32,000 nt of DNA from Planctomycetales bacterium (GTDB taxonomy: Bacteria; 4484-113; JAFGCY01). Positions 2,032 through 22,327 of the stretch are shown here, piece after piece; within the stretch, counting starts at the first letter, position 1, and each line of letters begins with the position of its first letter. A model generated the notes under the pieces. It was not told the origin of the DNA. It searched no databases and saw only the letters and a list, made by a program, of their open reading frames with translations. Location of the stretch: NCBI GenBank assembly GCA_022646745.1, contig CP060262.1, positions 3,480,001-3,512,000 of the forward strand. Reading direction: 5' to 3'. The translations under genes and the position numbers were made by a program.

Positions 2032-4482
2032 TTGTCCACTCCAAGCGCGGGTAGCGGGTCCGCAAAATCCAGCAAAGGCCAGCAGGATTTTGATAAGCTG
2101 GCCCAGAAGTACTTCGACTGGCTGATGCGCCAGTATCCGGGTTTTGCCACCTACATGGGAATCCATGAATTCGACAGCAAGCTAACCAATTATGCACCAC
2201 GCGCGCTGGAGATGCGCCGTGAGAAGGTCAAGGAATTCCACGACGCCTTCAAGGCGATACCGGCGCGTGAACTGAACACCGACAGCCGCATCGAGCGCCA
2301 GCTGATGGTCGACACGCTATGGATCCAGATGGCGAAGGAGAAGAACTGGGCCCGTGAGGAGCGCGACCCCGGTTTCTACCTCGATGACGCCGTCTACTCC
2401 TGCTATTCAATCACCGTGCGCGACTGCGGCGATGCCGAGGAAGCCGCGCAGAAGATGACCGAGCGCCTGCTGGGCATCCCGAAGCTGCTCGGCCAGGCCA
2501 AGAAGCTCGTCACCCGCCCGACCCGCATCAACTGCGAGACGGCGATCATGGCCGGCACTGGTGCGATCAACTTCTTCAAGGACACCGTTGCCAAGTTCGC
2601 CAAGCGCGTGAAGGAAGCCTCCACCCGCCAGTCTATGCGCGTCGCCACCCAGGTGGCCGAGGACGCCGTGACTGACTACATGAAGTGGATCGAGGAGGAG
2701 ATGCTCCCGATCAGCAACATGGACTTCGCGATCGGCGAGGAGCTGTTCAACCAGATCCTCAAGCGCGAGCACCAGCTGGACATGGATTCCGAGGAGCTGC
2801 TGGACCTCGGGCGCCGCGAGTACCGCCGCACCATCAAGGAGCTGGAGGACACCGCGCGCCGCGTCAGCAGTGAGTTGAGCTGGGAGGAGCTGATCGACCG
2901 GCTCAAGCTGCAGCACCCGACCAACAGCGAACTCGTGCAGTACTACGCTGATGAGATGAAGCGCGCCAAGCGCTTCGTGATCGAGAACCGCCTGGTTGAC
3001 ATCCCCGAGGGCGAGAAGATCGACGTGGTGCCCACGCCGGAGTTCGCCCGCCCGGTGATCCCATACGCCGCCTATGTTCCGCCCGCTCCCTACGACGGTG
3101 AGCAGCGCGGCATCTTCTGGGTGACCCCGGTTGACAAGGACAAGAGCATCGAGGAGATGGAGGAGCAGCTGCGCGGGCATGCCACGCATGGCATCGTCGT
3201 CACCGCGCTGCATGAGGCCTATCCGGGCCACCACCTGCAGATGACGCTGGCTAACCAGCTGCGCCATCGCCCGCTGCGCGTGCTGCTGTCAACGAGCGTG
3301 TTCGTGGAGGGCTGGGCGCTGTACTGCGAGGAGATGATGTGGCAGCAGGGCTTCTACGATGACCTGCGCAGCCGCTTGCTGCAGCTGAAGGACCAGCTGT
3401 GGCGCGCCTGCCGGGTGATCCTCGACGTGCACCTGCACCGCAATGAATGGAGCATCGAGAAGGGCATCCGCTTCCTCGTGCACAAGGCCCGCCTGGAGCG
3501 GCCGAATGCCGAGGCCGAGGTGCGCCGTTACTGCCAGTCACCGACGCAGCCGATGAGCTACATCGTCGGCAAGATGCAGGTGCTGGACATCCTGGACGAC
3601 TACAGGAAGCTGCGTGGCAACGCCTTCAACATCCGCCAGTTCCACAACGAGCTGATCCGCCACGGCAGCCTGCCGCTGAAGCAGATCCGCCTGCTGATGA
3701 ACCTCGATGGCAAGCTGGATGCCGAGGAAGCTGCCGCTGCGGCCGTACCGGCGAAGAAGGCGCGTGCCAGCAAGGCCGCTGCCAAGCCTGATGCGGCACC
3801 TGCCGCTGCCGCTGCCAAGAAGACCCCGGCCAGGAAGAGCACGACAGCCAAGCCGGCCGCAAGCAAGGCTGCGACGACGCCGGCGGAGAAGAAGCCGGCT
3901 GCCACAAAGTCAACATCCAGCAAGTCCACTGCGGCGAAGAAGCCTGCGGCCAGCAAGGCGAGCACCAGCAAGACGACTGCCAGCAAGACCGCCGCTGCCA
4001 AGAAGCCCGCTGCCAGCAAGGCAACAGCCCCGGCTGCGAAGAAGCCGGCCGCTGCCAAGTCAACGGCGAGCAAGCCTGCTGCGGCAAAGAAGCCGGCTGC
4101 CGCCAAGACGACGGCCAGCAAGACCACTGCAGCGAAGAAGCCTGCGGCTGCGAAGTCCACGGCAAGCAAGACCACTGCGACTGCCGCCAGGAAGCCTGCT
4201 GCCGCCAAGCCGACGGCTGCCAAGAGCACTGCGGCGAAGAAGCCTGCGGCCGCCAAGCCTGCTGCCAAGAGTACGACGGCCAGCAAGTCCACGACCCGCA
4301 GCACTGCAGGCACTGCCAAGACGACTGCAGCCAAGAAGCCCACGACGACCCGCAAGGCTGCCAGCACGACCGGTGGAGCCAAGACAGGCAGCACCGCGCG
4401 CAAAAGCACTACGACTGCGAGCAAGGCCAAGCCTGCCGCAGCGAAGAGCACAAGCCGCAAGCCGGCAGCGAAGAAGAAGTAA
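2032..4482 (+). CDS. DUF885-family protein (metallopeptidase-like) with a long C-terminal Ala/Lys/Pro/Thr-rich tail
   Basis: 816-aa ORF with a TTG start; the true start is uncertain. The HEAYPGHHLQ motif and overall length of the N-terminal ~545 aa fit DUF885. No signal peptide seen. Confidence 0.75.
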   Translation: MSTPSAGSGSAKSSKGQQDFDKLAQKYFDWLMRQYPGFATYMGIHEFDSKLTNYAPRALEMRREKVKEFHDAFKAIPARELNTDSRIERQLMVDTLWIQMAKEKNWAREERDPGFYLDDAVYSCYSITVRDCGDAEEAAQKMTERLLGIPKLLGQAKKLVTRPTRINCETAIMAGTGAINFFKDTVAKFAKRVKEASTRQSMRVATQVAEDAVTDYMKWIEEEMLPISNMDFAIGEELFNQILKREHQLDMDSEELLDLGRREYRRTIKELEDTARRVSSELSWEELIDRLKLQHPTNSELVQYYADEMKRAKRFVIENRLVDIPEGEKIDVVPTPEFARPVIPYAAYVPPAPYDGEQRGIFWVTPVDKDKSIEEMEEQLRGHATHGIVVTALHEAYPGHHLQMTLANQLRHRPLRVLLSTSVFVEGWALYCEEMMWQQGFYDDLRSRLLQLKDQLWRACRVILDVHLHRNEWSIEKGIRFLVHKARLERPNAEAEVRRYCQSPTQPMSYIVGKMQVLDILDDYRKLRGNAFNIRQFHNELIRHGSLPLKQIRLLMNLDGKLDAEEAAAAAVPAKKARASKAAAKPDAAPAAAAAKKTPARKSTTAKPAASKAATTPAEKKPAATKSTSSKSTAAKKPAASKASTSKTTASKTAAAKKPAASKATAPAAKKPAAAKSTASKPAAAKKPAAAKTTASKTTAAKKPAAAKSTASKTTATAARKPAAAKPTAAKSTAAKKPAAAKPAAKSTTASKSTTRSTAGTAKTTAAKKPTTTRKAASTTGGAKTGSTARKSTTTASKAKPAAAKSTSRKPAAKKK
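3715..4479 (+). repeat. coding low-complexity repeat (AAKKPAAAK / TASKTT units), histone-H1/AlgP-like
   Basis: About 255 aa composed almost only of A, K, P, T and S. Recurring DNA units such as gcgaagaagcctgcggc occur at ~3933, ~4133 and ~4233. Confidence 0.85.
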
Positions 4483-5050: not shown

Positions 5051-5077
5051 TTCGCCGACCTGGCTGGGAGAGATACT

Positions 5078-5151
5078 CGCGCACGGGAGGATTCGAACCC
5101 CCGACCTTCTGATCCGTAGTCAGATGCTCTAATCCTCTGAGCTACGTGCGC
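5078..5151 (-). tRNA. tRNA-Arg (anticodon ACG)
   Basis: Cloverleaf read by hand: acceptor GCGCACG/CGTGCGC, anticodon stem TCTGA/TCAGA, loop CTACGGA, T-loop TTCGAAT. 74 nt, no encoded CCA. Confidence 0.9.
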
Positions 5152-5163
5152 AAGGGGAGAGTA

Positions 5164-5191: not shown

Positions 5192-5375
5192 GCGGCTGCC
5201 GGGAATCTCCACCGGCGCTGGATTCCGGCCCGCTGCGGGCCGCAAGCCAGGCTGAAACAAGCTCCCGGCCAATGGTGTCTAAAAGGTTAAGCCCGGGTTC
5301 CGAACAGCTTTTTGATGTGCACAGTCTGTGAAAACATAAGCAGTTTTCCAGACTCGTCGGGTATGCTTAACCGTG

Positions 5376-5480
5376 ATGGACATTACCGGCGTAATCGGAC
5401 TACTGGGCCTGTCAGGCCTGCTGTTCTGGGTCTTCAAATCCATGGCCAGCAGCCCCGGCGGCGGTGGATGCGGCCATTGA
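5376..5480 (+). CDS. micro-ORF 1, 34-aa single-TM peptide (MDITGVIGLLGLSGLLFWVFKSMASSPGGGGCGH)
   Basis: ATG to TGA, hydrophobic helix followed by a Gly-rich C-terminus ending C-x-x. GC3 is about 74% by hand count, like the flanking genes. No clear SD. Confidence 0.35.
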   Translation: MDITGVIGLLGLSGLLFWVFKSMASSPGGGGCGH

Positions 5481-5488
5481 GGCTGAGC

Positions 5489-5511
5489 TTCATGGCCGGT
5501 CGGCCGATGAA
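5489..5511 (+). other. stem-loop after micro-ORF 1 (core CCGGTCGG)
   Basis: TTCATGGCCG-GT-CGGCCGATGAA, about 10 bp with one bulge. Confidence 0.6.
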
Positions 5512-5543
5512 CTATATAAGCAAGTGATTGACGGACAGGACAG

Positions 5544-5630
5544 ATGATCGGTACTGAGGGAGCATTCCTCCTGATTGTGTTCGGCGTCGTGGCCTGGCTG
5601 GCATTCAAGAAGGGCAGCTGCGGCCTTTGA
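5544..5630 (+). CDS. micro-ORF 2, 28-aa single-TM peptide (MIGTEGAFLLIVFGVVAWLAFKKGSCGL)
   Basis: AGGA 4-6 nt upstream of the ATG. Hydrophobic helix then KKGSCGL. GC3 about 75%. The stop context tgaggctga matches micro-ORF 1. Confidence 0.4.
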   Translation: MIGTEGAFLLIVFGVVAWLAFKKGSCGL

Positions 5631-5642
5631 GGCTGAACCGAC

Positions 5643-5658
5643 GGGACCGGTCGGTCCC
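5643..5658 (+). other. stem-loop after micro-ORF 2 (core CCGGTCGG)
   Basis: GGGACCG-GT-CGGTCCC. Confidence 0.6.
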
Positions 5659-5684
5659 CTGCCCCGGCGATGGTGGAGGAACCA

Positions 5685-5780
5685 ATGCAGCTAAACATCT
5701 GGACACTGATGGCGATAGCCGTGGCGATTGGCACCGCGGCCTACATGGTGCTCGGAAATGGTGGAGCCTGCACCACCTGA
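5685..5780 (+). CDS. micro-ORF 3, 31-aa single-TM peptide (MQLNIWTLMAIAVAIGTAAYMVLGNGGACTT)
   Basis: Strong SD GGAGGA 4 nt upstream of the ATG. Hydrophobic helix then GNGGACTT. GC3 about 74%. Confidence 0.5.
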   Translation: MQLNIWTLMAIAVAIGTAAYMVLGNGGACTT

Positions 5781-5792
5781 CACTGATATAAG

Positions 5793-5806
5793 GTGCCGGT
5801 CGGCAC
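5793..5806 (+). other. stem-loop after micro-ORF 3 (core CCGGTCGG)
   Basis: GTGCCG-GT-CGGCAC, 12 nt before the rseP ORF start. Confidence 0.6.
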
Positions 5807-5818
5807 TGATAACTAAGG

Positions 5819-7399
5819 ATGGAGCCGGGCCTTCCCGGAATGTGTATGGATTTCCTGTTGAATGCATTAGCAGTGGTCTTGGTCTTTGGTCTGATTGTGT
5901 TCATCCACGAATGGGGCCACATGATGGCGGCCAAGCGAGCCGGAATCGCTGTACCGACATTCGCGATCGGTATGGGGCCGAGCCTGTTCAGCTTCTGGTT
6001 CGGTGAGACTGAATACCACCTCTGTGCCTTCCCGATCGGCGGTTTCGTCAAGATCTCCGGCATGGTGGACGACGGACACATGCCCGACAAGGCGGACAAC
6101 GCACAGCATGTGGATGAAGTCCCGGCCGAACCCCGGCTCAAGCCCCTACCCTCCGGCAAGGAGCGCATGCTTACAAAGGACTGGAGCGACGCGACGGGCT
6201 GGGAGAAGGCCTCGATCCTCGTGGCCGGCCCACTGATGAACATCCTGGCCGCGATGCTGACCATCTTCGTGATGGGCCAGATCGGCTTCCAGGTCAACGA
6301 CGTGATGATCAATGGCGTCGAGGACGGCATGCCGGCCCAGCAGGCCGGACTGCAGGCCGGTGACATCGTGCACAGCATCAACGGCAGCGTGGTGGAGAAC
6401 TCACAGCAGTTCATCCATGCAGTGCAGGCCAGCGGCGGCGAGACCGTCAGCATCGGCATCAAGCGCCATGGCGAGGATGTCGAGATCTCGGCCACCCCGC
6501 GTTCCCGCGAGGGCTTTAATGAGGGCAAGCTCAGCCTCGGCGTCGTACTGACCGAAGTGATGAAGAGCAGCAACATCGTGTCGCTGGTACCCGCCCGCAG
6601 CAGCGGCTACAGTGCCGGCCTGCGTGTCGGCGACCAGGTGGTCGAACTCAATGGCGAGCCCGTCAGCAATGGCCTTGACGTGCTGTTGGCAATGGCGCCA
6701 TTCAACGATGCAAGCTATGAGGCACAGGACTACTACGGCCATCCGCTGGACAAGGAAGGCCATCCGCTCGGCGAGGACGGCGAACGCCTGGCGGTGTCGG
6801 AGGCCGGCTTCCTGCTGGATGCCTCCGGCAAGCCGCTCGTGAGCGAGGTCACGGGTGAGCCGATGCAGGCCACCGTGTTCGGCCCGATGGCGCTTACGGT
6901 TGAGCGTGATGGTGAGCGGATTCCGATCACCCTGCCGGCGGCTACCACGATGGTCAGTGGCGGCGTCAGCTTCCGTCCGGACCTGATGCGCCTGCCCTTC
7001 GACCGCGCGCTGCTGCGCAGCCTGGACGAGGCGAAGTACAGCCTGCTGGGCATCATTGACGGCATGCGCGCGATCTTCACCAAGGAAGGCTCGAAGAGCG
7101 TGGGCGGCCCGATCATGATCTTCAACCTGATCGGCCAGAGTGCATCGAGCGACATCTACACCTTCCTGATGATGTTCATGGTGATCAACATCAACCTCGG
7201 CGTGCTGAACCTGCTGCCCTTCCCGCTGCTGGACGGCGGGCGCCTGGTGTTCGTGGCGCTCAAGGGCATCGGCCTGCGCATCTCCGAGAACAGCGAGGCC
7301 ACGGTGCATTTCGTCGGTTCGTTGATCCTGATCGGCTTCATCCTGTACGTCAGCTTCTTCGACGTGCTTGCGCTGATCCCGCGCGGCGGGGGCGGCTAG
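5819..7399 (+). CDS. rseP: RIP metalloprotease RseP (M50 site-2 protease) with PDZ region
   Basis: HEWGH (HExxH) in TM1, and the NLLPFPLLDGGR motif near the C-terminus. PDZ-like segment GMPAQQAGLQAGDIV...ING. By homology the start may be the internal ATG at 5846 (MDFLLN...). Confidence 0.9.
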   Translation: MEPGLPGMCMDFLLNALAVVLVFGLIVFIHEWGHMMAAKRAGIAVPTFAIGMGPSLFSFWFGETEYHLCAFPIGGFVKISGMVDDGHMPDKADNAQHVDEVPAEPRLKPLPSGKERMLTKDWSDATGWEKASILVAGPLMNILAAMLTIFVMGQIGFQVNDVMINGVEDGMPAQQAGLQAGDIVHSINGSVVENSQQFIHAVQASGGETVSIGIKRHGEDVEISATPRSREGFNEGKLSLGVVLTEVMKSSNIVSLVPARSSGYSAGLRVGDQVVELNGEPVSNGLDVLLAMAPFNDASYEAQDYYGHPLDKEGHPLGEDGERLAVSEAGFLLDASGKPLVSEVTGEPMQATVFGPMALTVERDGERIPITLPAATTMVSGGVSFRPDLMRLPFDRALLRSLDEAKYSLLGIIDGMRAIFTKEGSKSVGGPIMIFNLIGQSASSDIYTFLMMFMVININLGVLNLLPFPLLDGGRLVFVALKGIGLRISENSEATVHFVGSLILIGFILYVSFFDVLALIPRGGGG

Positions 7400-7500
7400 G
7401 CCGGGCCAATACCGGAGCAGAAGCCCGCACGGAGCAATGCTGCACTGGACTGGCCGTAAATGATAAACTGGCATCATCATCCTTGGTTCAGAGAATTGCG

Positions 7501-9651
7501 ATGCCAGTTGCCGTTCGTCCCTTCCCTCTGTTGCTTGCAGCCCTGCTCACACTGCTGAATGCGTGTGCAGATGGTGGGCAGGCCATCACTGATCTGCAGC
7601 CAGTGGCAACGGTCAGCGGGCCGCAGTCATCGTCGAACCAGCTTCAGAACAGTATGCTGCCGGCCCTGCCCCAGGGACGCAGTTCGGCAGGCTTGACGGA
7701 GACGAGTGTCAATGGTGACAACACCTTCTCGCGCAGCAGCAGCGCCACACCCGTGAGTCCGGTTCTGCAGCTGGCCTCCGCTCCCGGGGAACTGAGCTGG
7801 GGCATCTGGGAACTTCCGGCGGTGGATGAGCTGCGTTTCCTGGACATCGAGATGTTCGTACCGGAACAGTCCGGCAGCGTCTATATCGCACTTGCGGACT
7901 ACAGTAAGGGCACATGGGACATCCAGGGGCCGGTCTTCGCGGGGCGGGTCGTCGAGCTGGACCCGGCGAGACATACTTCGCCTGGAAGCGCGATGTATGC
8001 AGCCGTTCTTGCCCATGACGGCGCGGACGCCACCGTGCAGAAACTCTCGCTGGTGGCCCACCACGCCAATGCCGCCCCGAGCGCCGCACTGGTTGCTGAT
8101 GTAACGAGTGGAACCGCGCCGCTGACAGTGGAGTTCGATGCCAGCGGCAGCAGCGACCCCGATGGCAACATCGTGCGCTATCTGTGGGACTGGGACGGTA
8201 ACGGCGGCTTCGATGAGCAGAGTATCAGTCCTGTTGTTACACATATCTACACCTCCGGCGGCAGCTTCAGTGCCAGTGTCGTGGTGGAGGACAGTGACGG
8301 CGAACGCAGCAGCAGTACGCCTGTGGAAATCTCGGTGAACAACCCGCCGCTGGCGAAGCTGACCATCACGACGGATGAGGTCCAGAAAGGCGCGGACGTT
8401 CATCTGAACGGCTCATTGAGCAGCGACGGTGACGGCAGCATCGTGAAGTATGAGTGGGACACCGACGGCAACGGCAGTTTCGAGACCGACAGCGGCGCGT
8501 TCAGCCAGATTACTTTCGCTGCATTGACGGCGGGGCCTTTCGTAATCCAGCTACGGGTGACGGACAACAGTGGCGCGACAGCTATTGGCAGCGCCGTGCT
8601 GAACGTCCGCGGCTGGAACACGACTACGCCTGAAGCGGGTCCTAACTTCACCGGCGTCTTCAACTCGCTGGCCGTTGTCAACGGCAAGCCGGCGATCTGC
8701 TACCATGACCAGGGCAACCGCGACCTGCGTTATGTACAGGCCCTGGATTCCGAGGGCAGCGTCTGGGGCACGCCGCTGACGGTGGACGGCGAGGGCATCA
8801 CCGGTCTGCACACCTCGCTGGCCGTGGTCAACGGCAAGCCGGCGATCGGCTACCGCGACTCCGACAACGACGAGCTGCGCTATGTGCGGGCCACGGATAC
8901 AGACGGCAGCGCCTGGGGAACACCGATCACAGTGGACAGCAACGCGGACAACATCTCCACGCCTCTCTCACTGGCAGTGGTCAACGGCAACCCGGCGATC
9001 AGCTACCAGGACCCTACTGACCTGGACCTGCGTTTCGTGCGGGCGACCAACGCGAATGGCAGTGCCTGGAACGCTCCATTGACACTGGACAGCGTGGGCG
9101 ATACTGGTAAGGATTGCTCGCTGGCCGTCGTCAACGGCAACCCGGCGGTCAGCTACTTTGACACAACGAACACGGCATTACGCTATGTACGCGCCACTGA
9201 CGCATCCGGTACGGCCTGGGGCATGCCGGTGACTCTGGACAGCACGGGCATCACTGGCACGGATACCTCGCTGGCTGTGGTCAACGGTAACCCGGCAATC
9301 AGCTACCGCGACGGCAGCAATGGCTTCCTGCGCTTCATACGGGCCGAAGATCCCGACGGCAGCGCATGGAACACGCCGCTGACCCTGGATGATGCTGGCG
9401 GCACCGGTCTTTACACCTCACTGGCCATCATAAACGGTAAGCCGGCGGTCTCCTACCAGGACCTCAACAACGCCGACCTACGATATATACAGGCTGCTGA
9501 CGCTGACGGCACGATCTGGGAAGCACCATTGACCATTGATTTCCTGAATAATGTCGGCAGTTTCACTTCGCTGGCGGAGGTCAACGGCAGGCCGGCAATC
9601 AGCTATCACAAGAACACGGACGGCGACCTGCGCTACGCCTGGGGCTTCTAG
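7501..9651 (+). CDS. lipoprotein: conserved N-domain + 2 PKD domains + 7 propeller-like repeats (paralog 1)
   Basis: Lipobox LLNAC. PKD signatures YLWDWDGNG and YEWDTDGNG. Seven ~45-aa repeats SLAVVNGxPAISYxD...LRYVRA.D..G..W..P. The ORF is also open from TTG 7483. Confidence 0.8.
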   Translation: MPVAVRPFPLLLAALLTLLNACADGGQAITDLQPVATVSGPQSSSNQLQNSMLPALPQGRSSAGLTETSVNGDNTFSRSSSATPVSPVLQLASAPGELSWGIWELPAVDELRFLDIEMFVPEQSGSVYIALADYSKGTWDIQGPVFAGRVVELDPARHTSPGSAMYAAVLAHDGADATVQKLSLVAHHANAAPSAALVADVTSGTAPLTVEFDASGSSDPDGNIVRYLWDWDGNGGFDEQSISPVVTHIYTSGGSFSASVVVEDSDGERSSSTPVEISVNNPPLAKLTITTDEVQKGADVHLNGSLSSDGDGSIVKYEWDTDGNGSFETDSGAFSQITFAALTAGPFVIQLRVTDNSGATAIGSAVLNVRGWNTTTPEAGPNFTGVFNSLAVVNGKPAICYHDQGNRDLRYVQALDSEGSVWGTPLTVDGEGITGLHTSLAVVNGKPAIGYRDSDNDELRYVRATDTDGSAWGTPITVDSNADNISTPLSLAVVNGNPAISYQDPTDLDLRFVRATNANGSAWNAPLTLDSVGDTGKDCSLAVVNGNPAVSYFDTTNTALRYVRATDASGTAWGMPVTLDSTGITGTDTSLAVVNGNPAISYRDGSNGFLRFIRAEDPDGSAWNTPLTLDDAGGTGLYTSLAIINGKPAVSYQDLNNADLRYIQAADADGTIWEAPLTIDFLNNVGSFTSLAEVNGRPAISYHKNTDGDLRYAWGF

Positions 9652-9786: not shown

Positions 9787-11937
9787 ATGCTCACGAAGGA
9801 TCGCCTTCTTTCCTGGCTGATCGCCGCATTGCTTACGTTACTGGGTGCCTGTGCTGATGGTGGACGCACCACAGGGGAACTGCGACCTGCTCCCGGCCTT
9901 GCCAATCAGCTCCCTTCACTCCATACGGACAACCTTAGCTCATTGCCTGCCCTGCCCCTGATGCGCGGTGCATCCGACCTCACTGAAAGCAGCGTGGATG
10001 GCGACAGTACTTACGCACGCAGTGGCAATGCCATGCCTGCCAGCCCGGCACTGCAGCTGGCTGCCGAGGCAACTGAACTGAGCTGGGGCATCTGGGAACT
10101 GCCGGCCTCCGGTGAACTGCGCTACCTCGACATCGACATGACTGTGCCTGAGCAAGCCGGCAGTGTCTACATCGCACTCGCTGACTATCAATCTGGAAGT
10201 TGGCAACTAGACGGACCGGTGTTTTCCGGCAGGGTGCTCGAGCTTGACCCGGATAAGCATGCCTCGCCGGACAACGCACTGTATGCCGCAGTGATTGCAT
10301 ATGACAAGGCAGAGGCAACGGTGCAGAAGCTCAGCCTGCTGGCCGGCCATTCGAACACGGCACCAAGTGCTGTGCTAGAAGCGGAAGTCGTTTCTGGCAA
10401 TGCACCGCTGGCGGTGGAACTTGACGCCAGTGGCAGCACAGACCCTGATGGCAACATCGCGCGCTACCTGTGGGACTGGGACGGAGATGGCCTTGTTGAT
10501 GGCACGAGCTACAGCGCAGTGCTTCAGCATACCTACGAAGCAGGAGGCGAATTCGCTGCCACAGTCACGGTTGAGGATGCCGATGGTGCAAGCGGCACCA
10601 GCACCGCTGTCAACATCAATGTCAACGGACAGCCCACTGCCGTGCTGAGCCTTGCTGACAGCGAAGTGCAGAAGGGCGATATCGTGGTGCTTAATGGCAG
10701 CCTGAGCAGCGACAGTGATGGCAGCATCGTGCTGTACGAATGGGATACGGACGGCGACGGCAGCTTCGATGCGGACAGTGGCGACAGCAGCACACTCAAC
10801 ATCGGCGCCGGGACCGCCGGTCCATTGCTGCTGCAGCTGCGGGTGACTGACGACGACGGAGCGACGGCGGTCGACACTGCGCTTCTGAATGTGCGGGGCT
10901 GGAACACTGTCAACGTGAACCTGTTCGGCGGCCCTGACCACGGGAAGCACTGCTCACTGGCGCTTGTGAACGGCTTTCCGGCGATCAGCTACTACCGGGA
11001 AAGCACCGCAGACCTGATGTATGTCCGGGCGACTGATGCCGAAGGCAGCAGCTGGGGCAACCCGATAGCAGTTGCGACTCCCAGCGACCAGGGCCAATTC
11101 AGCTCACTGCTGGTTGTCAACGGCAACCCGGCAATCGGGTTCTGGGAAGCCACGAACAGCAACCTGCGCTACGTGCGGTCCGCTGACCCTGATGGCACGG
11201 TCTGGGCACCGTCGATAACCGTCGACGCACCGGGCCTGACCGGTTCATACCTCTCGATGGCGCTGGTGCACGACAATCCGGCAATGAGCTACCACGACTC
11301 TGCACTCGGCCTGCGCTTCGTGAGGGCGAATGATGCCAATGGATCAGACTGGGGCACGCCGCTGAGCCTGGACAGCGTCGGTATCACCGGGGGTTACACA
11401 TCACTTGCCCTGCTGTCCACCGGCTACCCGGCGATCAGCTACTACGATGCCAGCAATGGAGACCTGCGCTTCATCCGGGCAACGGACCAGGACGGCACCG
11501 CCTGGGTCGCGCCGGTTACGCTGGACAGCCTTGGTGACACCGGCGTGAACACATCGCTGGCATTGGTCAACGGCAATCCGGCGATCAGCTACTACGACCA
11601 GGGAGCCGACAACCTGCGCTACATCCGGGCCGAAACCTTCTTTGGCAGTATCTGGGGTCCGCCCCAGACCCTGGACAGCATCGGTGACACAGGTGATTAT
11701 CCATCACTGGAAGTCATCAACGGCTTCCCGGCAATCAGCTACCACGATGCCACCAGTGGCAAGCTGCGCTACATCCGCGCCACGGATGCCAACGGCCAGG
11801 TCTGGAACCCCTCGCTGACACTGGATAACGCGACATCAACTGGTGAATACACTTCTATGTGCATGATTGGCGGCGGCCGCCACGCCATCTGCTACTACGA
11901 CAGCAACTCCGGGCTGCGTTACGCCTGGGAGTTCTAG
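9787..11937 (+). CDS. lipoprotein: conserved N-domain + 2 PKD domains + 7 propeller-like repeats (paralog 2)
   Basis: SD GAGGTG 6 nt upstream. Lipobox LLGAC. The N-terminal half is closely similar to paralog 1 (ELSWGIWELPA, SVYIALADY, ATVQKLSL, LNVRGWNT). Seven repeats. Confidence 0.85.
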   Translation: MLTKDRLLSWLIAALLTLLGACADGGRTTGELRPAPGLANQLPSLHTDNLSSLPALPLMRGASDLTESSVDGDSTYARSGNAMPASPALQLAAEATELSWGIWELPASGELRYLDIDMTVPEQAGSVYIALADYQSGSWQLDGPVFSGRVLELDPDKHASPDNALYAAVIAYDKAEATVQKLSLLAGHSNTAPSAVLEAEVVSGNAPLAVELDASGSTDPDGNIARYLWDWDGDGLVDGTSYSAVLQHTYEAGGEFAATVTVEDADGASGTSTAVNINVNGQPTAVLSLADSEVQKGDIVVLNGSLSSDSDGSIVLYEWDTDGDGSFDADSGDSSTLNIGAGTAGPLLLQLRVTDDDGATAVDTALLNVRGWNTVNVNLFGGPDHGKHCSLALVNGFPAISYYRESTADLMYVRATDAEGSSWGNPIAVATPSDQGQFSSLLVVNGNPAIGFWEATNSNLRYVRSADPDGTVWAPSITVDAPGLTGSYLSMALVHDNPAMSYHDSALGLRFVRANDANGSDWGTPLSLDSVGITGGYTSLALLSTGYPAISYYDASNGDLRFIRATDQDGTAWVAPVTLDSLGDTGVNTSLALVNGNPAISYYDQGADNLRYIRAETFFGSIWGPPQTLDSIGDTGDYPSLEVINGFPAISYHDATSGKLRYIRATDANGQVWNPSLTLDNATSTGEYTSMCMIGGGRHAICYYDSNSGLRYAWEF

Positions 11938-12013: not shown

Positions 12014-13975
12014 TCAGTAGACCCTGAGGAACATCAGGTCGCCCGGCACCACGTTGTGGAAGCTGATCCCCGCGCGCCCGGCCACCGCGGCCAGAGAGAG
12101 ATAGTCATAGTCCACGTTGCCGGCCCCCATGCGCAGCTCCTCGGCCCACTCTGATCCCTGGGCATCGAGGGCCTCGATGTAGCGCAGCTGGGCATGCCCG
12201 GAGCAGTAGTAGGCCACGGCCGGCACACCGTTGACAATCGCCATCGAGCAGAAGCCGCGGGTGATCCACTGGTCGTCCAGCACCTGGACCGCGCCCCAGT
12301 TGCCGCCGACGGCATCAGACGAGCGGATGTACTTCAGGCAGAAGTCCCCTTCGTAGGCGATCGCCGGCAGGCCGTCCACCACAAGCAAGGTGTTGTAGGG
12401 ATCGATGTTGACATCATCATCTATCACCGTGGCGGCGGGCCAGGCTGAGCCGGCGGCATCGAGGGCACGCACATAGTGCAACTCCTTGCCTGAGGCCCGG
12501 TTGAAGCTGATCGCAGGGAGGCCCTGGACCTCGCAAAGTGAGGGATAGCGCCCGACCCAGCCGTCGTCGGCAACAGTGACGGGCAGGCCCCAGGCCAGGC
12601 CGAGGGCATCCGCGCTGCTGATGAAGCGCAGGTCTGCGTTGCTGGCATCATAGTAGGCTACGGCGGGCTTGCCGGCGATTACGGCCAGCGAGCAGTACTG
12701 CCCGACGTCGTTGATGGCTTCCAGCACCTGCGGCTGGCCCCACTGGCTGCCGTCAGGCTGCGTGGCGCGGATGAACATCAGGTTGCCGTTGCCAGCATCG
12801 TAGTAGCTGATCGCGGGGTTGCCGGCGACGATCTTCATGCAGGCATACTGCCCCACATCGCCATTGTCATCCAGCACGACCGGCTCAGCCCATTGCCCGC
12901 CCTGCCCATCGAGGGCACGGCGGAACTTCAGGCAGGCATTGTCCTCATCGTAGTATGCGATCGCCGGGCGGCCGTCCACCACTGCCAGCGAGGTGTGCTT
13001 GCCTGTCACACCTTCGCCCTCCAGCAGCTGGGCATCACCCAGGCCGTGCACCTTGACGACAAGGCTGTCCGTGTCCTGCGCGCCGTCGTCATCGGTGACA
13101 CGCAGGGTGACGGTGTACTCCCCGCCGGTGGAATAGCTGAACTCCACTGTCGCGGGATCATTGTCATCGTCAAACACCGCATCCTGGAAGTCCAGGTCAC
13201 CGTCAATGTCATATTCGTAAGTGACGATCTCGCCGTCGGGGTCAGTACTAAAGAGTGCACTCACCACGGTAACCGCCCCCAGGTCAATCTCAAGGAATTC
13301 GATATCCAGTACAGCCGTGGGGGGCTGGTTGTCCCCTCCCCCGCCGTCGCCACCATTGCCACCGCCTCCGCCGTCGCCACCGTTGCCTCCTCCGCCATTG
13401 CCGCCATTGTCCGGGTCATCATCGGTGGAGAACAGCAGCCCGTTGACGGTCACGTCATTGCCGGCCGGGGCCAGCACAGTGACGAACACGGTGTCCGCCG
13501 GGGAGATGTAACGGGCATCATCATTGGCAAGTTCGCAGTCATCGCTGTAGGGGCCGTGGATCTCCCAGCGGCCGCTGTCGTAATCTGCCAGCGCAATGTA
13601 GGCACCGCTGCCCTCGCCGTTGCTCATGTCGATGCTGACACTGAGCGGGGCCTGGCCCTGCAGGTCGAATCCGTACTGTGACCACTGCAGGCCGGCCTGC
13701 TGGCCGAGGGCATTGAGCCACAGTGCCGGGGGCATTTCGAGGATGTTGTCCGAGGCGGCGATGTAGGAACTCCCACTGACGGCCTGCTCCACCAGCTGGG
13801 AGGCTGCACGTCCATCAGGCAGCTCCGGCAGGCCCGCCAGCTCCACGGCATTGGCTGCCGGGGGCTGCTGCAGCCCACTGCTGCCCTGCGGGGAGATACC
13901 GCCGCAGGAGGCTGCAAACAGGGATGCAGAGAGGATCAGCAGGGCCAGGCCCGCCGTGTGGAGTCGATTGCTCAT
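12014..13975 (-). CDS. lipoprotein: conserved N-domain + Gly/Asn/Asp linker + 1 PKD domain + 7 propeller-like repeats (paralog 3)
   Basis: ATG 13975 has GAGG upstream; the ORF is also open to TTG 13996. Lipobox FAASC. AYIALADYDSGRWEIHGP, PKD-like TYEYDIDGD, seven repeats. Confidence 0.8.
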   Translation of the reverse strand: MSNRLHTAGLALLILSASLFAASCGGISPQGSSGLQQPPAANAVELAGLPELPDGRAASQLVEQAVSGSSYIAASDNILEMPPALWLNALGQQAGLQWSQYGFDLQGQAPLSVSIDMSNGEGSGAYIALADYDSGRWEIHGPYSDDCELANDDARYISPADTVFVTVLAPAGNDVTVNGLLFSTDDDPDNGGNGGGGNGGDGGGGGNGGDGGGGDNQPPTAVLDIEFLEIDLGAVTVVSALFSTDPDGEIVTYEYDIDGDLDFQDAVFDDDNDPATVEFSYSTGGEYTVTLRVTDDDGAQDTDSLVVKVHGLGDAQLLEGEGVTGKHTSLAVVDGRPAIAYYDEDNACLKFRRALDGQGGQWAEPVVLDDNGDVGQYACMKIVAGNPAISYYDAGNGNLMFIRATQPDGSQWGQPQVLEAINDVGQYCSLAVIAGKPAVAYYDASNADLRFISSADALGLAWGLPVTVADDGWVGRYPSLCEVQGLPAISFNRASGKELHYVRALDAAGSAWPAATVIDDDVNIDPYNTLLVVDGLPAIAYEGDFCLKYIRSSDAVGGNWGAVQVLDDQWITRGFCSMAIVNGVPAVAYYCSGHAQLRYIEALDAQGSEWAEELRMGAGNVDYDYLSLAAVAGRAGISFHNVVPGDLMFLRVY

Positions 13976-14062
13976 ATTGTGCCTCGCAGTTCTCAAACCG
14001 GGCGTTTTACCCGCTGTCAGGAACGGCTAAACCACGGCACAGGAGCGGGAGCGCTGCTCATC

Positions 14063-17140: not shown

Positions 17141-17506
17141 TCAACTTCCGACTTCAAGACTCTGACGCAGTCGATTCAGCATCCTGCAGGTTTCTTCGAG
17201 TATCTGGATACTCTCACGAGCTGATTCTGCCTTTGTCAAACCGACGCGGATCGACAACTGCAACAGACTGTCAACCTCCCTGGCTGAACCCAGTGCTATG
17301 GAAACAAATCGTGAGTAGTCAGCCCTGGAACCGCGTCCATTACCCTCAGCAATGTTTGCCGATATCGATACACTGGCACGACGCAGCTGTGATACGAGGC
17401 CGTACTGTTCTGACCTAGGAAAGGCAATTGTCAATCTGTAGATTGACTCCGCAAGATCCATAGCCCGATTCCATACCCTTAGATCTCTGAAGGAAACCGC
17501 ACTCAT
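17141..17506 (-). CDS. four-helix-bundle protein (23S rRNA IVS protein / Avd-like family)
   Basis: 121 aa. FRDLRVWNRAMDL...YGLVSQLRRASVSISANIAEGNGR...GSAREVDSLL is typical of this family. GGAG SD 7 nt upstream of ATG 17506. AT-richer than its surroundings. Confidence 0.85.
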   Translation of the reverse strand: MSAVSFRDLRVWNRAMDLAESIYRLTIAFPRSEQYGLVSQLRRASVSISANIAEGNGRGSRADYSRFVSIALGSAREVDSLLQLSIRVGLTKAESARESIQILEETCRMLNRLRQSLEVGS

Positions 17507-17531
17507 CTTATTGCTCCACACATACGTATGT

Positions 17532-17560
17532 ATAGTACCCGATGGAGCACTTAAAGTCAA
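17532..17560 (-). promoter_or_regulatory. sigma70-type promoter internal to cassette 1
   Basis: Minus strand: TTGACT, 17 bp, TACTAT, about 25 nt upstream of the SD. Confidence 0.5.
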
Positions 17561-19999: not shown

Positions 20000-20364
20000 T
20001 GGGATCGAAGGACTTCGGCGGGCTGGGCGAGGAGCTCGCCGCGCGCCTGATGGAGTCCCAGGGGATGGAGATCCTCGAGCGCAACCTGCACATCGGCAAG
20101 CTGGGGGAGCTGGACATCGTGGCGCTGGACGGCGAGACGCTGGTGTTCTGTGAGGTGAAGTGCAAGCACAGCAACCAGGAGCTGGGGGGCTTCCATGCGA
20201 TCAACTTCGGCAAGCAGCAGCAGGTCAAGCGCCTGGCGGGGGCCTTCCTGGTGGGCTTCGAGGGGGAATTCAGGTACTGCCGCTTCGACGCGGTGGAGGT
20301 GGTGGTTGACATCGAGGGCAAGGCGGAACCGGTTGTCAACCAGCTGAAGGATGCATGGCGGTAG
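19999..20364 (+). CDS. yraN: YraN-family (UPF0102) predicted endonuclease
   Basis: 121 aa. GEELAARLMESQGMEILERN...GELDIVALDGETLVFCEVKCK...RFDAVEV matches the UPF0102 pattern. Confidence 0.8.
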   Translation: MGSKDFGGLGEELAARLMESQGMEILERNLHIGKLGELDIVALDGETLVFCEVKCKHSNQELGGFHAINFGKQQQVKRLAGAFLVGFEGEFRYCRFDAVEVVVDIEGKAEPVVNQLKDAWR

Positions 20365-20453
20365 GAAGAGAACAGGGAACAGGGAACAGGGAACAGGGAA
20401 CGGGGAACGGGGAACAGCAGGAAAGATATCAGGGAACAGGGAACGTGGAAAGA
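20365..20453. repeat. G-rich heptamer array (GGGAACA x4, GGGGAAC x2, spacer, GGGAACA x2), left arm of cassette 2
   Basis: Read directly. It starts immediately after the yraN stop. Confidence 0.9.
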
Positions 20454-20505
20454 GAATTCAGAAAGGAAAACATTGGGTACCTACTCCAGCTCAATTTGTC
20501 ATTAC

Positions 20506-20535
20506 TTGCCTATCTGTGTCTCATTATGTTATAAT
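20506..20535 (+). promoter_or_regulatory. sigma70-type promoter internal to cassette 2
   Basis: TTGCCT (20506-20511), 18 bp, TATAAT (20530-20535), then SD GGAGGA at 20545-20550. Confidence 0.5.
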
Positions 20536-20554
20536 CCGTAACGTGGAGGAGAAC

Positions 20555-20917
20555 ATGGGTTCTGCATATCATCGCGATTTACGGGTTTGGCAACGGTCAA
20601 TGGACCTGGTTGAAAGGATATATGAGTTGTCAAACAGTTTTCCCAAGCAGGAAACATACGGCATTACATCCCAGCTTCGTCGCGCTGCCGTGTCTATTCC
20701 AACAAACATAGCGGAAGGTAACGGCCGGTCAACTCGACGTGACTATGCGCACTTCCTCAGCATTGCCTTTGGATCTGCCCGTGAAGTTGATACCCTTTTG
20801 GATCTTGCGACGAGATTGCGCGTTGCAGAAGCAGGAAAGGTCCATGAGTGCTTAGTATTACTCGATGAAGTATGCGGAATGCTATACGCAATGAGGTCAA
20901 AGTTGGTTGCCAACTAA
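20555..20917 (+). CDS. four-helix-bundle protein (23S rRNA IVS protein / Avd-like family)
   Basis: 120 aa. HRDLRVWQRSMDL...YGITSQLRRAAVSIPTNIAEGNGR...GSAREVDTLL. Roughly half the positions are identical to the 17141-17506 product by hand alignment. AT-richer than its surroundings. Confidence 0.85.
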   Translation: MGSAYHRDLRVWQRSMDLVERIYELSNSFPKQETYGITSQLRRAAVSIPTNIAEGNGRSTRRDYAHFLSIAFGSAREVDTLLDLATRLRVAEAGKVHECLVLLDEVCGMLYAMRSKLVAN

Positions 20918-20992: not shown

Positions 20993-22327
20993 GGTTCAAT
21001 ACATAGGTAATGGTTTAGGTTCAGAACATAGGTAACGGTTTCCGTGAGAATCACCCTTCGAGAGGAGGGTGCCATGCCGTGGAAGGAGGCCGATGTAATG
21101 GACCTGAGAATGCAGTTCGTCACGCGTGCGCTGCGTGAGGAGATGTCCTTTGCCGCGCTTTGCCGGGAGTTCGGCATCAGCGCAAAGACAGGGTACAAGT
21201 GGAAGCAGCGCTTCCTGGATGATGGCTACGGCGGGCTGGTCGACCTGTCGCGCCGTCCCGCTGCACATGCCCGCCAGCTGGATGAGGACACGATCTTCGA
21301 GATCGTCAGGCTCAAGCAGCAGCACATGCGCTGGGGGCCGGCCAAGATCCGCGAGCTGTTTCGCAGGACACATCCCGGCCGGGACTGCCCGTCGCTGAGC
21401 ACCGTCAAGCGCATGCTTGGCAAATGCGGCCTGGTCGAACGCCGCAGGCGTCGCCAGCAGAAGCAGACGGGCCGGATCAGCCAGCGCCGGACGGCCACCG
21501 CTGCCAACCAGGTCTGGACGGTGGACTTCAAGGGCTGGTGGTTCAGCTCCGAGCGGGAACGCGTGCAGCCGCTGACGGTCTGTGACGCATACAGCCGCTG
21601 TGTGCTGCTGGCCCAGGCCCTGCCGGACAGCCGCAGCGACACGGTGCGTGAGTGCTTCAGCAGGCTGTTCGAACAGTACGGCCTGCCTGAGTGCATCCGT
21701 TCTGACAACGGCACGCCCTTTGCCGCCAGCAATGCCCTGCTGGGGCTGAGCAGGCTGTCCGCATGGTGGCTGGCACTGGGCATCAGCCTGGACCGCATAG
21801 ATCCCGGCAGGCCCGACCAGAACGGCAGCCATGAGCGGATGCATCGTGAGATCGCCTGCGAGGTGGAAAGCCGGGTGGATGGCGATCTGGCAACACAGCA
21901 GGCCGCACTGGACATCTGGCGCGAGGAGTACAACACCCAGCGCCCGCATGAGGCACTGGGCATGCGCTGCCCGGCCGAACTGTATGTGAAGTCACTGCGG
22001 AAGTACAGGCCGGAGGGATTCGAGCTGCACTACCCGGCGGGATTCCTGCGCCGCAAGGTGCAGCGCAACGGATACATCAAGCTGGACAGGCGCATGATCA
22101 ACCTGACAACGGCACTGCGGGGCTGGCATGTGGGACTGCAGTCGCAGGGATCACAGGAGTACAGGGTATGGTTCGCGCAGCTCTGCCTCGGCAGGCTCAA
22201 CCTGAGGGATGAAGTGATGCACCCGCCGGGATGAGTACAGCACAGGAGCAATACCCGATGATATACAATAGTTCAATTAAAACGTTACCTATGTATTGAG
22301 CCTCAACCGTTACCTATGTTCTGAACC
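20993..22327 (+). mobile_element. IS481-like insertion sequence (~1.3 kb)
   Basis: Single DDE (rve) transposase ORF. The ~47-bp terminal inverted repeats are each a tandem pair of a ~23-bp motif, GGTTCA(AT/GA)ACATAGGTAA(T/C)GGTT. 21018-21040 is the exact reverse complement of 22305-22327. GTAC occurs next to both ends. Confidence 0.8.
21074..22234 (+). CDS. IS481-family DDE transposase (HTH + rve integrase core)
   Basis: GGAGG SD 5 nt upstream. N-terminal HTH (FAALCREFGISAKTGYKWKQRF). Catalytic-core motifs WTVDFKGWW, IRSDNGTPF, NGSHERMHREI, RPHEALG. Confidence 0.85.
   Translation: MPWKEADVMDLRMQFVTRALREEMSFAALCREFGISAKTGYKWKQRFLDDGYGGLVDLSRRPAAHARQLDEDTIFEIVRLKQQHMRWGPAKIRELFRRTHPGRDCPSLSTVKRMLGKCGLVERRRRRQQKQTGRISQRRTATAANQVWTVDFKGWWFSSERERVQPLTVCDAYSRCVLLAQALPDSRSDTVRECFSRLFEQYGLPECIRSDNGTPFAASNALLGLSRLSAWWLALGISLDRIDPGRPDQNGSHERMHREIACEVESRVDGDLATQQAALDIWREEYNTQRPHEALGMRCPAELYVKSLRKYRPEGFELHYPAGFLRRKVQRNGYIKLDRRMINLTTALRGWHVGLQSQGSQEYRVWFAQLCLGRLNLRDEVMHPPG

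Follow-up and report, generated by a model that had tools for sequence, protein, structure and literature searches.

Three tandem genes for predicted membrane selenopeptides

A 32,000-nt stretch of a Planctomycetales bacterium genome (contig CP060262.1, positions 3,480,001 to 3,512,000; hereafter the window) carries, directly upstream of the site-2 protease gene rseP, three tandem paralogous small open reading frames (sORFs). We consider it very likely that they encode single-pass membrane selenoproteins of 30-36 residues in which the first TGA codon of each frame specifies selenocysteine (Sec, U). For the locus as a whole, the best explanation is likely to be a set of tandem Cys-x-x-Sec (CxxU) membrane selenopeptide genes that have selenocysteine insertion sequence (SECIS) elements in their 3' untranslated regions (UTRs) and are co-located with rseP. 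Most likely, they form a previously unannotated selenoprotein family, which is unusual in its size, its membrane anchoring, its tandem triplication and its pairing with an intramembrane protease. The initial annotation let the peptides end at Cys-x-x and, in one of its two options, assigned the hairpins behind them to regulatory or antisense RNAs, and both points need to be revised: the apparent stop is a conserved UGA followed by a SECIS-type hairpin at the canonical distance, the C-terminal ends are probably CGHUG, CGLUG and CTTUH, and the hairpins are, judging from the DNA, probably recoding signals rather than stems of antisense or regulatory RNAs.

The trio lies on the forward strand and fills the ~690-nt gap between a tRNA-Arg(ACG) gene (5077-5152, reverse strand) and rseP (5846-7399). 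When translated only to the first TGA, sORF-A (5376-5480), sORF-B (5544-5630) and sORF-C (5685-5780) comprise 34, 28 and 31 amino acids, respectively. All features first described for them (same orientation, hydrophobic helix, tail rich in Gly, Cys as the third-last residue) were confirmed. The chains close with ...GGGGCGH, ...KKGSCGL and ...NGGACTT, which places the Cys codon three codons before the TGA in each case. Beyond this TGA, every frame continues for one codon and then reaches a second stop (CGH-TGA-GGC-TGA, CGL-TGA-GGC-TGA and CTT-TGA-CAC-TGA). This Cys-x-x-TGA-x-stop architecture accounts for the stop context TGAGGCTGA, which had been noticed as common to the first two modules (a module being one sORF with its hairpin) and is indeed present in both. 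With the first TGA read as Sec, sORF-A extends over 5376-5486 (proposed Sec codon 5478-5480, stop TGA 5484-5486), sORF-B over 5544-5636 (Sec codon 5628-5630, stop TGA 5634-5636) and sORF-C over 5685-5786 (Sec codon 5778-5780, stop TGA 5784-5786), and the full products are most likely MDITGVIGLLGLSGLLFWVFKSMASSPGGGGCGH-U-G (36 residues), MIGTEGAFLLIVFGVVAWLAFKKGSCGL-U-G (30 residues) and MQLNIWTLMAIAVAIGTAAYMVLGNGGACTT-U-H (33 residues). Sec would thus be the penultimate residue, which leaves the SECIS element almost wholly in the 3' UTR.

The coding character of the sORFs is consistent with that of the surrounding genes. The GC content at third codon positions (GC3), initially put at ~74-75%, was calculated as 0.74, 0.75 and 0.74 for sORF-A, sORF-B and sORF-C, compared with 0.71-0.88 in most neighbouring genes. 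Both Shine-Dalgarno sites reported before are present, namely GGAGGA at 5673-5678, 6 nt ahead of the ATG at 5685 of sORF-C, and AGGA ahead of the ATG at 5544 of sORF-B; sORF-A has no Shine-Dalgarno site, and a second possible start of sORF-C is the upstream ATG at 5670. The best 17-residue Kyte-Doolittle window scores 2.06-2.18 across the three peptides (2.07 for sORF-A), and a strong transmembrane segment is found in the peptides of all 17 modules collected from the window and its relatives. N termini are acidic or neutral, and a Lys or Arg comes straight after the helix. For types A and B (the orthologues of sORF-A and sORF-B), this charge bias points to an N-out/C-in topology, in which the CxxU tail would sit at the cytoplasmic face of the membrane.

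SECIS-type hairpins at a fixed distance from the proposed Sec codons

Each sORF is followed on the same strand by a short hairpin with a GGUC tetraloop. Hairpin A (5490-5510) has the stem UCAUGGCC/GGCC(G)AUGA and its loop at 5498-5501, i.e., at +21 to +24 counted from the U of UGA. Hairpin B (5643-5658; GGGACC-GGUC-GGUCCC) has its loop at 5649-5652 (+22 to +25, as in Escherichia coli fdhF), and hairpin C (5792-5807; GGUGCC-GGUC-GGCACU) at 5798-5801 (+21 to +24). All three tetraloops are closed by two C-G pairs, and the hairpins start 12-15 nt after the UGA. The same core behind each ORF, which the initial annotation had pointed out, was found as CCGGTCGG in exactly three copies in the window, all on the forward strand (at 5496, 5647 and 5796, spaced by 151 and 149 nt), and each copy forms the top of one hairpin.

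The bacterial SECIS consensus describes a stem of 4-16 bp topped by a loop of 3-9 nt that begins with two Gs followed by G or U, a distance of 16-37 nt between UGA and loop, and a minimum free energy (MFE) of -7.5 kcal/mol or lower (PMC13188914, Fig. 2 legend). The window hairpins have loops of 4 nt on stems of 6-8 bp, loops starting with GG, distances of 17, 18 and 17 nt, and MFE values of -10.3, -11.5 and -9.0 kcal/mol for A, B and C, respectively. Distances of 16-18 nt were also observed in the related loci L004, L005, L007 and L085.

The closest well-studied counterpart is the SECIS element of E. coli fdhF, whose GGUC loop occupies +22 to +25 and whose upper stem-loop begins 11 nt past the UGA. 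The 46-nt fdhF string used for this comparison occurs without a mismatch (100% identity) in 5,419 of the 5,426 complete E. coli genomes, where the gene is annotated as selenocysteine-containing formate dehydrogenase H. Like fdhF-type bacterial selenoprotein genes, the modules combine an in-frame UGA with an apical GGUC loop at +21 to +25, and the stem pairs vary while the loop is fixed. Unlike them, they have a penultimate Sec, a SECIS element that lies essentially in the 3' UTR and a product that is a 30-36-residue membrane peptide instead of an enzyme. They also lack a bulged U matching U17, which is one of the conserved positions of the fdhF element (U17, G23 and U24) and, along with G23, a contact of SelB (PMC8659212).

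Chance is a poor source of such an arrangement. In dinucleotide-shuffled windows, a GGTC-loop hairpin with a stem of 4 bp or more comes after a TGA about once per window; when an in-frame Cys codon at -3 is also demanded, the mean drops to 0.04 with a maximum of 1 in 300 dinucleotide shuffles, compared with the 3 cases observed. Across ~110 kb (the window and related loci, both strands), the TGA plus GGTC-hairpin pattern returned only the modules and one weak chance site. The hairpins were also considered as intrinsic terminators, which was ruled out: they have no U-tract, and none of them was called by a terminator scan.

These observations suggest the following scheme. The mRNA of each gene would consist of a start codon, a transmembrane helix of ~18 residues, a basic residue, a Gly-rich linker, Cys-x-x-UGA-x-stop and the hairpin, whose invariant GGUC tetraloop would act as a bacterial SECIS element. 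According to the established SelB/SECIS mechanism, SelB carrying Sec-tRNA(Sec) would bind this loop and decode the UGA as selenocysteine, so that the mature peptides would acquire the CxxU ends given above. By analogy with known redox motifs, the tail may then cycle between the selenol/thiol and selenenylsulfide states, or bind a soft metal, and serve as a membrane-tethered redox arm, and the peptides may be partners of RseP, either as its substrates or as accessory or regulatory subunits. Cys-x-x-Sec is common among the redox motifs in one published table of selenoproteins (PMC13188914).

Conservation of the modules across bacterial lineages

Contigs of relatives were reached through RseP homologues, and one locus (L085, GenBank JAWLAZ01) was added by a DNA-pattern scan of GTDB genomes. 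In total, 17 modules were collected: three each in the window, L085, L005/L006 and L007, two in L004, and one each in L008, L188 and L189. A ninth lineage is represented only by P0122, a 50-residue type-A peptide, at the protein level, and adds no module. Identical copies of the window modules occur in three independent samples of the same species (L001-L003), which belongs to an uncultured lineage. Among the 10 distinct RseP lineages with DNA, eight have modules directly upstream of rseP, and the other neighbours differ. L008, L188 and L189 each have one module there although their RseP proteins are just 43-45% identical to that of the window; L009 and L190 are RseP lineages without the sORF, so the pair is not universal. 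Assemblies with the locus include ENA ERZ28655359 (WANG18-1 scaffolds), ERZ25039462, ERZ25038436, SRR24270831, GenBank JAWLAZ01 and JAFGCY01, and the one that contains MCB1218448.1, and GCA_020849855.1 and GCA_030154765.1 are relatives that lack the sORF. That each deep lineage has only one module suggests a single gene in the ancestor and a triplication in the clade of the window, which agrees with the multiplication of a peptide-plus-hairpin unit proposed at the outset.

The codons around the first TGA evolve as coding sequence while the TGA itself is kept. The first stop is TGA in all 17 modules, and the second is TGA in 13 and TAG in four. The Cys codon alternates between TGC and TGT, Gly codons vary at the wobble position, and the codons of the x residues change synonymously. 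One to three codons follow the first TGA (U-G, U-H, U-I, U-T, U-AG and U-GPF), and the CxxU spacing is found in 16 of the 17 modules. Orthologues of sORF-A in L085, L004, L005 and L007 finish identically, with CGH-TGA-GGC-TGA. Those of sORF-B in L085, L005 and L007 end in CGLUG or CGFUT with a Cys codon that switches between TGC and TGT, and those of sORF-C end in CLTUH, CNTUI, CGTUI or CATGUG before a second stop that is either TGA or TAG. Thus, an in-frame UGA is retained among orthologues whose flanking codons evolve as coding, as in selenoprotein genes. TGA is also one of three ordinary stops here (7 of 16 confidently called genes of the window end in it), so that drift would be expected of a plain stop. 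The same count rules out a genome-wide reassignment of TGA.

The ratio of nonsynonymous to synonymous substitution rates (dN/dS) ranges from 0.07 to 0.54 for type A and from 0.32 to 0.71 for most type-B pairs, and is 0.12 for type C (the orthologues of sORF-C; L005 versus L007); one type-B pair gave 1.16 in an ungapped alignment and is probably misaligned. Non-conservation of the frames, which had been named as one outcome that would leave only a structured RNA element, was not seen: the peptides have orthologues in nine lineages, and most values fall within 0.07-0.54. Comparison of the sequences supports purifying selection on the peptides and thus their status as real, conserved, protein-coding genes.

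The hairpins show a second pattern of constraint. GGUC is the loop in 14 of the 17 modules, GGUCC in module B of L085, and AGUU in L188 and L189. Across the 14 GGUC hairpins and six stem positions, 90.5% of cells are paired and both sides have changed in 15 cells; none of 500 column shuffles matched these values, and all slid registers collapse. The loop and its two closing C-G pairs are invariant in this set, and the next pairs alternate among G-C, C-G, A-U, U-A and G-U. Compensatory changes are evident in hairpin C, which has GCGCC/GGCGC in L005, L007 and L085, and GCACC/GGUGC in L004. L188 and L189 retain C-G/N-T-TGA, but the hairpin that they have at this position is GC-rich, has an AGUU loop and is unrelated to the others. 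Conservation thus concerns the placement of a hairpin at a set distance from an unchanging TGA and not a repeat sequence, which is what a recoding signal predicts and what neither a repetitive extragenic palindromic (REP)-like element nor a plain stop does. The B hairpin of L085 (692-720) has one additional C, giving either a GGUCC loop or, in the MFE fold, a stem with one more pair and a GUC loop. Loop size can thus vary to some extent.

Weighing the selenoprotein reading and its alternatives

Several results weigh against the selenoprotein reading. The search for Sec machinery covered the window and the loci retrieved from relatives (up to 22 kb each) and found neither selA, selB, selD nor a tRNA-Sec (selC) gene, and a search of the same regions for split ORFs with an in-frame TGA gave no other selenoprotein gene, only off-frame artefacts. 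Most accepted selenoprotein families possess Cys homologues. A homologue with Cys in place of Sec turned up neither among the 17 modules nor in a profile search of 5.8 billion proteins or a full HMMER search of 1.84 billion representatives; these searches are insensitive at 30-36 residues and recovered only P0121 and P0122, both truncated members of the family. No Rfam family, SECIS or other, matched the hairpins at gathering or permissive thresholds. The distance between UGA and loop is 14-15 nt in L008, L188 and L189, slightly below the 16-nt consensus bound, and module C of L004 has CxxxU in place of CxxU. Cysteines or other residues of RseP do not co-vary convincingly with the presence of the sORF. 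Sec decoding and peptide function are both proposed from sequence, and function in particular is inferred.

The alternative that survives best is that these are ordinary small membrane-protein genes ending at the first TGA, with the hairpins acting as 3'-end stabilisers, RNase sites, sites for other proteins or cistron separators. It agrees with the conserved and coding nature of the peptides, with hairpins that have no U-tracts and sit between cistrons, with the negative search for Sec machinery genes in the window and the related loci, and with the public annotation, which ends the proteins at the TGA. However, it offers no reason why the first stop should be TGA in 17 of 17 modules while the next one varies, why a second in-frame stop always comes within one to three codons, or why a Cys is fixed three (once four) codons upstream. 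It also leaves unexplained that the distance between hairpin and TGA is kept even in the AGUU clade and that the fdhF SECIS element has the same loop and spacing. We therefore regard it as unlikely.

A further proposal is that the sORFs encode precursors of ribosomally synthesized and post-translationally modified peptides, or peptides with a lipid- or metal-modified Cys, the TGA being a plain stop and the C-terminal Cys the site of modification. A conserved Cys near the C terminus behind a Gly-rich linker would fit this idea, as would a weak, sub-threshold likeness to FeoB-associated Cys-rich membrane proteins. Yet no conserved maturase, radical S-adenosylmethionine enzyme, cyclase or transporter gene lies nearby (rseP alone is constant), and the constraints on TGA and hairpin would go unexplained, which makes this proposal very unlikely.

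Tandem type-I toxin-like hydrophobic peptides, with the hairpins belonging to cis-antisense or regulatory RNAs that repress translation, were the second option of the initial annotation. The peptides are indeed small, hydrophobic and arranged in tandem, and E. coli RseP degrades the toxin HokB (PMC10470546). But the option gained no support and is highly improbable: the consensus promoter scan, which cannot exclude such a promoter, found none on the minus strand within the modules in 5300-5850 (the sole one detected serves the tRNA); purifying selection acts on the Gly-rich Cys tail and not on the helix alone; synteny with rseP is stable and vertical across deep lineages; and the hairpin lies downstream of the ORF instead of over the start or the Shine-Dalgarno site. 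A conserved Cys, a conserved TGA, a short extension and a fixed hairpin distance are not features of toxins.

Finally, a repeated structured non-coding RNA or REP-like palindrome with fortuitous ORFs would account for an identical 8-mer core occurring three times at a period of ~150 nt, but is strongly disfavoured, as the ORFs keep their frame, length and amino-acid sequence while synonymous changes accumulate, the core occurs as an element nowhere else in the window or the loci, and no true copies were recovered elsewhere, bar one close relative, among the genome-collection matches listed (of at least 120) and the 58 metagenome hits.

The searches behind these last figures deserve a short description. 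Scanning the genome collection with CCGACCGGN{6,10}YYANNNTCANNNNCCRCA gave at least 120 matches, and among the matches listed only L085 is a true member; the remaining listed ones are chance occurrences in high-GC genomes. A tighter pattern applied to the metagenome collection produced 58 hits, none of them real. Recurrent hits of the form 'xxCGW*G*' proved to be the antisense of the aldose-1-epimerase motif TDRPTVVNLTNHSYFNLAG. The same motif is a systematic false positive in searches of the form TGYGGNTGGTGA...CCGGTCGG, appearing in antisense in L017, L027, L031, L044 and many other actinobacterial loci of high GC content.

Comparison with known selenoproteins and small membrane proteins

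Scanned with Cys in place of U, none of the 17 peptides matches an NCBIfam model, the curated selenoprotein families included. In the 2026 inventory of 119 prokaryotic selenoprotein families, there is no small membrane CxxU family and none named with a site-2 protease (PMC13188914). The nearest entries are the NCBI families with a C-terminal Sec (UXX-star 1 and 2, KCU-star, Cys-Cys-COOH SaoC and the CC/Se motif), in which Sec also lies a few residues from the end, often beside a Cys, and whose genes are likewise routinely annotated as truncated at the UGA (PMC13188914). These families differ in that their models match none of the 17 peptides and, in a comparison by family names, they point to neither a membrane anchor nor a link to rseP. 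Full-text literature searches turned up nothing relevant that joins selenoproteins or selenocysteine with RseP or with small membrane proteins.

A similar design is known from eukaryotes. SELENOK and SELENOS are anchored by one N-terminal transmembrane helix, and their disordered, Gly-rich cytosolic tail has a Sec 1-3 residues from the C terminus; both are endoplasmic reticulum proteins of 94-189 residues with a eukaryotic 3'-UTR SECIS element, and SELENOS forms a Cys-Sec selenenylsulfide. The predicted window peptides follow the same plan without sequence homology, and the likeness is one of functional analogy only. Thioredoxin reductase provides another analogy through its C-terminal Gly-Cys-Sec-Gly redox arm, a flexible Cys/Sec pair that ends in Gly and is expected to cycle through a selenenylsulfide. 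Its GCUG can be compared with GCGHUG of sORF-A; there, Cys and Sec are adjacent on a flavoenzyme, whereas here CxxU is carried by a free-standing membrane anchor.

Among domain families, only PF12669 (FeoB-associated Cys-rich membrane protein) recurred, matching three of the 17 members at E <= 1 with a best hit of E = 4.4e-4 and 20.9 bits, which is below the gathering score of 27. Its members resemble the peptides in having ~40-50 residues, an N-terminal transmembrane helix and a Gly/Cys-rich tail, but their genes accompany feoB and not rseP, and no Sec forms of them appear in the 2026 list. This sub-threshold match could represent Cys forms. Other small proteins such as KdpF, CydX, AcrZ and RseP substrates such as HokB are also tiny, single-pass and encoded beside the gene of a large membrane protein; in contrast to the peptides described here, they have no Sec, and the usual site-2 protease substrates are oriented N-in/C-out instead of the predicted N-out/C-in.

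In public databases, the peptides appear only as two truncated 'hypothetical protein' entries of 50 residues each (MCB1218448.1 and MEZ5338998.1), and one IMG copy is mis-named NapE. It seems that such genes are systematically left uncalled or called as truncated hypothetical proteins. Standard selenoprotein searches lean on Cys homologues and longer ORFs, and such genes would therefore be missed. If confirmed, the peptides would be among the smallest selenoproteins described, and would form a bacterial membrane-anchored family with a penultimate Sec that is the design counterpart of SELENOK and SELENOS. The tandem triplication moreover supplies natural variants (CGHUG, CGLUG and CTTUH) for comparison.

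Relationship of the selenopeptide genes to rseP

The gene rseP (5846-7399, forward strand) encodes a site-2 protease with Peptidase_M50 and PDZ domains, these domains being the ones that Pfam assigns to P0001 (99% identity over 517 residues). No terminator-like site was detected by the scan between hairpin C and rseP, and the sORFs and rseP are probably co-transcribed. With rseP as the sole constant neighbour and no terminator in between, the peptides may be co-expressed with the site-2 protease and act as its functional partners. The initial annotation had suggested that the peptides are substrates or regulators of the adjacent protease. The physical side of this link is backed by the conserved gene order, which holds even at 43-45% RseP identity; a redox function of the peptides as partners of RseP is possible but doubtful. 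Adjacency to rseP across deep lineages nevertheless provides a testable lead that ties selenium or redox chemistry to intramembrane proteolysis.

E. coli RseP degrades small membrane proteins, including the small toxin HokB, and the usual site-2 protease substrates are N-in/C-out (type II) proteins (PMC10470546). The N-out/C-in topology predicted for types A and B is opposite to this; such predictions are unreliable for small membrane proteins, for which dual topology has been described (PMC10470546). One specific idea, which is speculative and unlikely, is that the peptides are dedicated redox-sensing partners of RseP whose flexible cytoplasmic Cys-x-x-Sec tail reaches the membrane-embedded zinc site and ligates or gates it. 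It would amount to a selenocysteine version of the metalloprotease 'cysteine switch', released by selenenylsulfide oxidation or soft-metal capture. If it were true, redox state or selenium status would act as the switch for intramembrane proteolysis in this lineage.

Genomic surroundings of the locus

A start-anchored comparison of eight lineages revealed a -10-like box, GGGTATGCT, at 5359-5367 on the forward strand, which ends 8 nt before the start of sORF-A. The box has the form GGGTAT(T/G)CT (TGGTATAAAT in L008) and ends 8-9 nt before the sORF-A start also in L085 (421-434), L004, L005, L007, L008 and L188. The consensus promoter scan did not call it. Its position, together with the missing Shine-Dalgarno site of sORF-A, suggests that 5359-5367 is a promoter and that the sORF-A mRNA is leaderless or near-leaderless. 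A second conserved block, 'cagtc(t)TGAAA', lies ~45 nt upstream, a spacing unfit for a sigma-70 -35 element.

The divergent tRNA-Arg(ACG) gene that forms the upstream boundary (5077-5152, reverse strand) was identified by ARAGORN and Rfam, and has a sigma-70-like promoter of good quality at 5191-5164 on the minus strand. The same tRNA is found upstream of the sORF in L001, L004, L005, L007 and L188, and the order tRNA-Arg(ACG), sORF, rseP is common to the window clade and L188 (tRNA at 3571-3646 on the minus strand; RseP 45% identical). In one clade, tRNA-Arg and the sORFs are separated by an inserted gene whose 423-residue product is a membrane protein with a borderline MauE/DoxX domain (L005 8104-9375, also L006 261-1457); the MauE/DoxX family is associated with disulfide and redox chemistry.

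Farther upstream, the gene at 2032-4482 (forward strand) encodes a DUF885 protein that is conserved upstream of the locus in relatives. Its C-terminal tail of ~260 residues is rich in Lys, Ala, Thr and Ser and is histone-H1-like (weak PF07382 HC2 hit). Downstream of rseP, three large paralogous PKD-domain proteins (7483-9651 and 9787-11937 on the forward strand, 12014-13996 on the reverse strand) carry a many-times-repeated 'LAVVNGxPAI(S/G)Y...D..LRY' unit, and only some of the relatives have them. An IS481-type transposase is accompanied by two paralogous genes of the '23S rRNA intervening sequence protein' type (PF05635) in the region covered by 17141-17560 (reverse strand), 20351-20917 and 21044-22234 (both forward strand). 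With a GC3 of 0.44-0.47 in the PF05635 genes compared with ~0.8 in their neighbours, this patch looks foreign or mobile.

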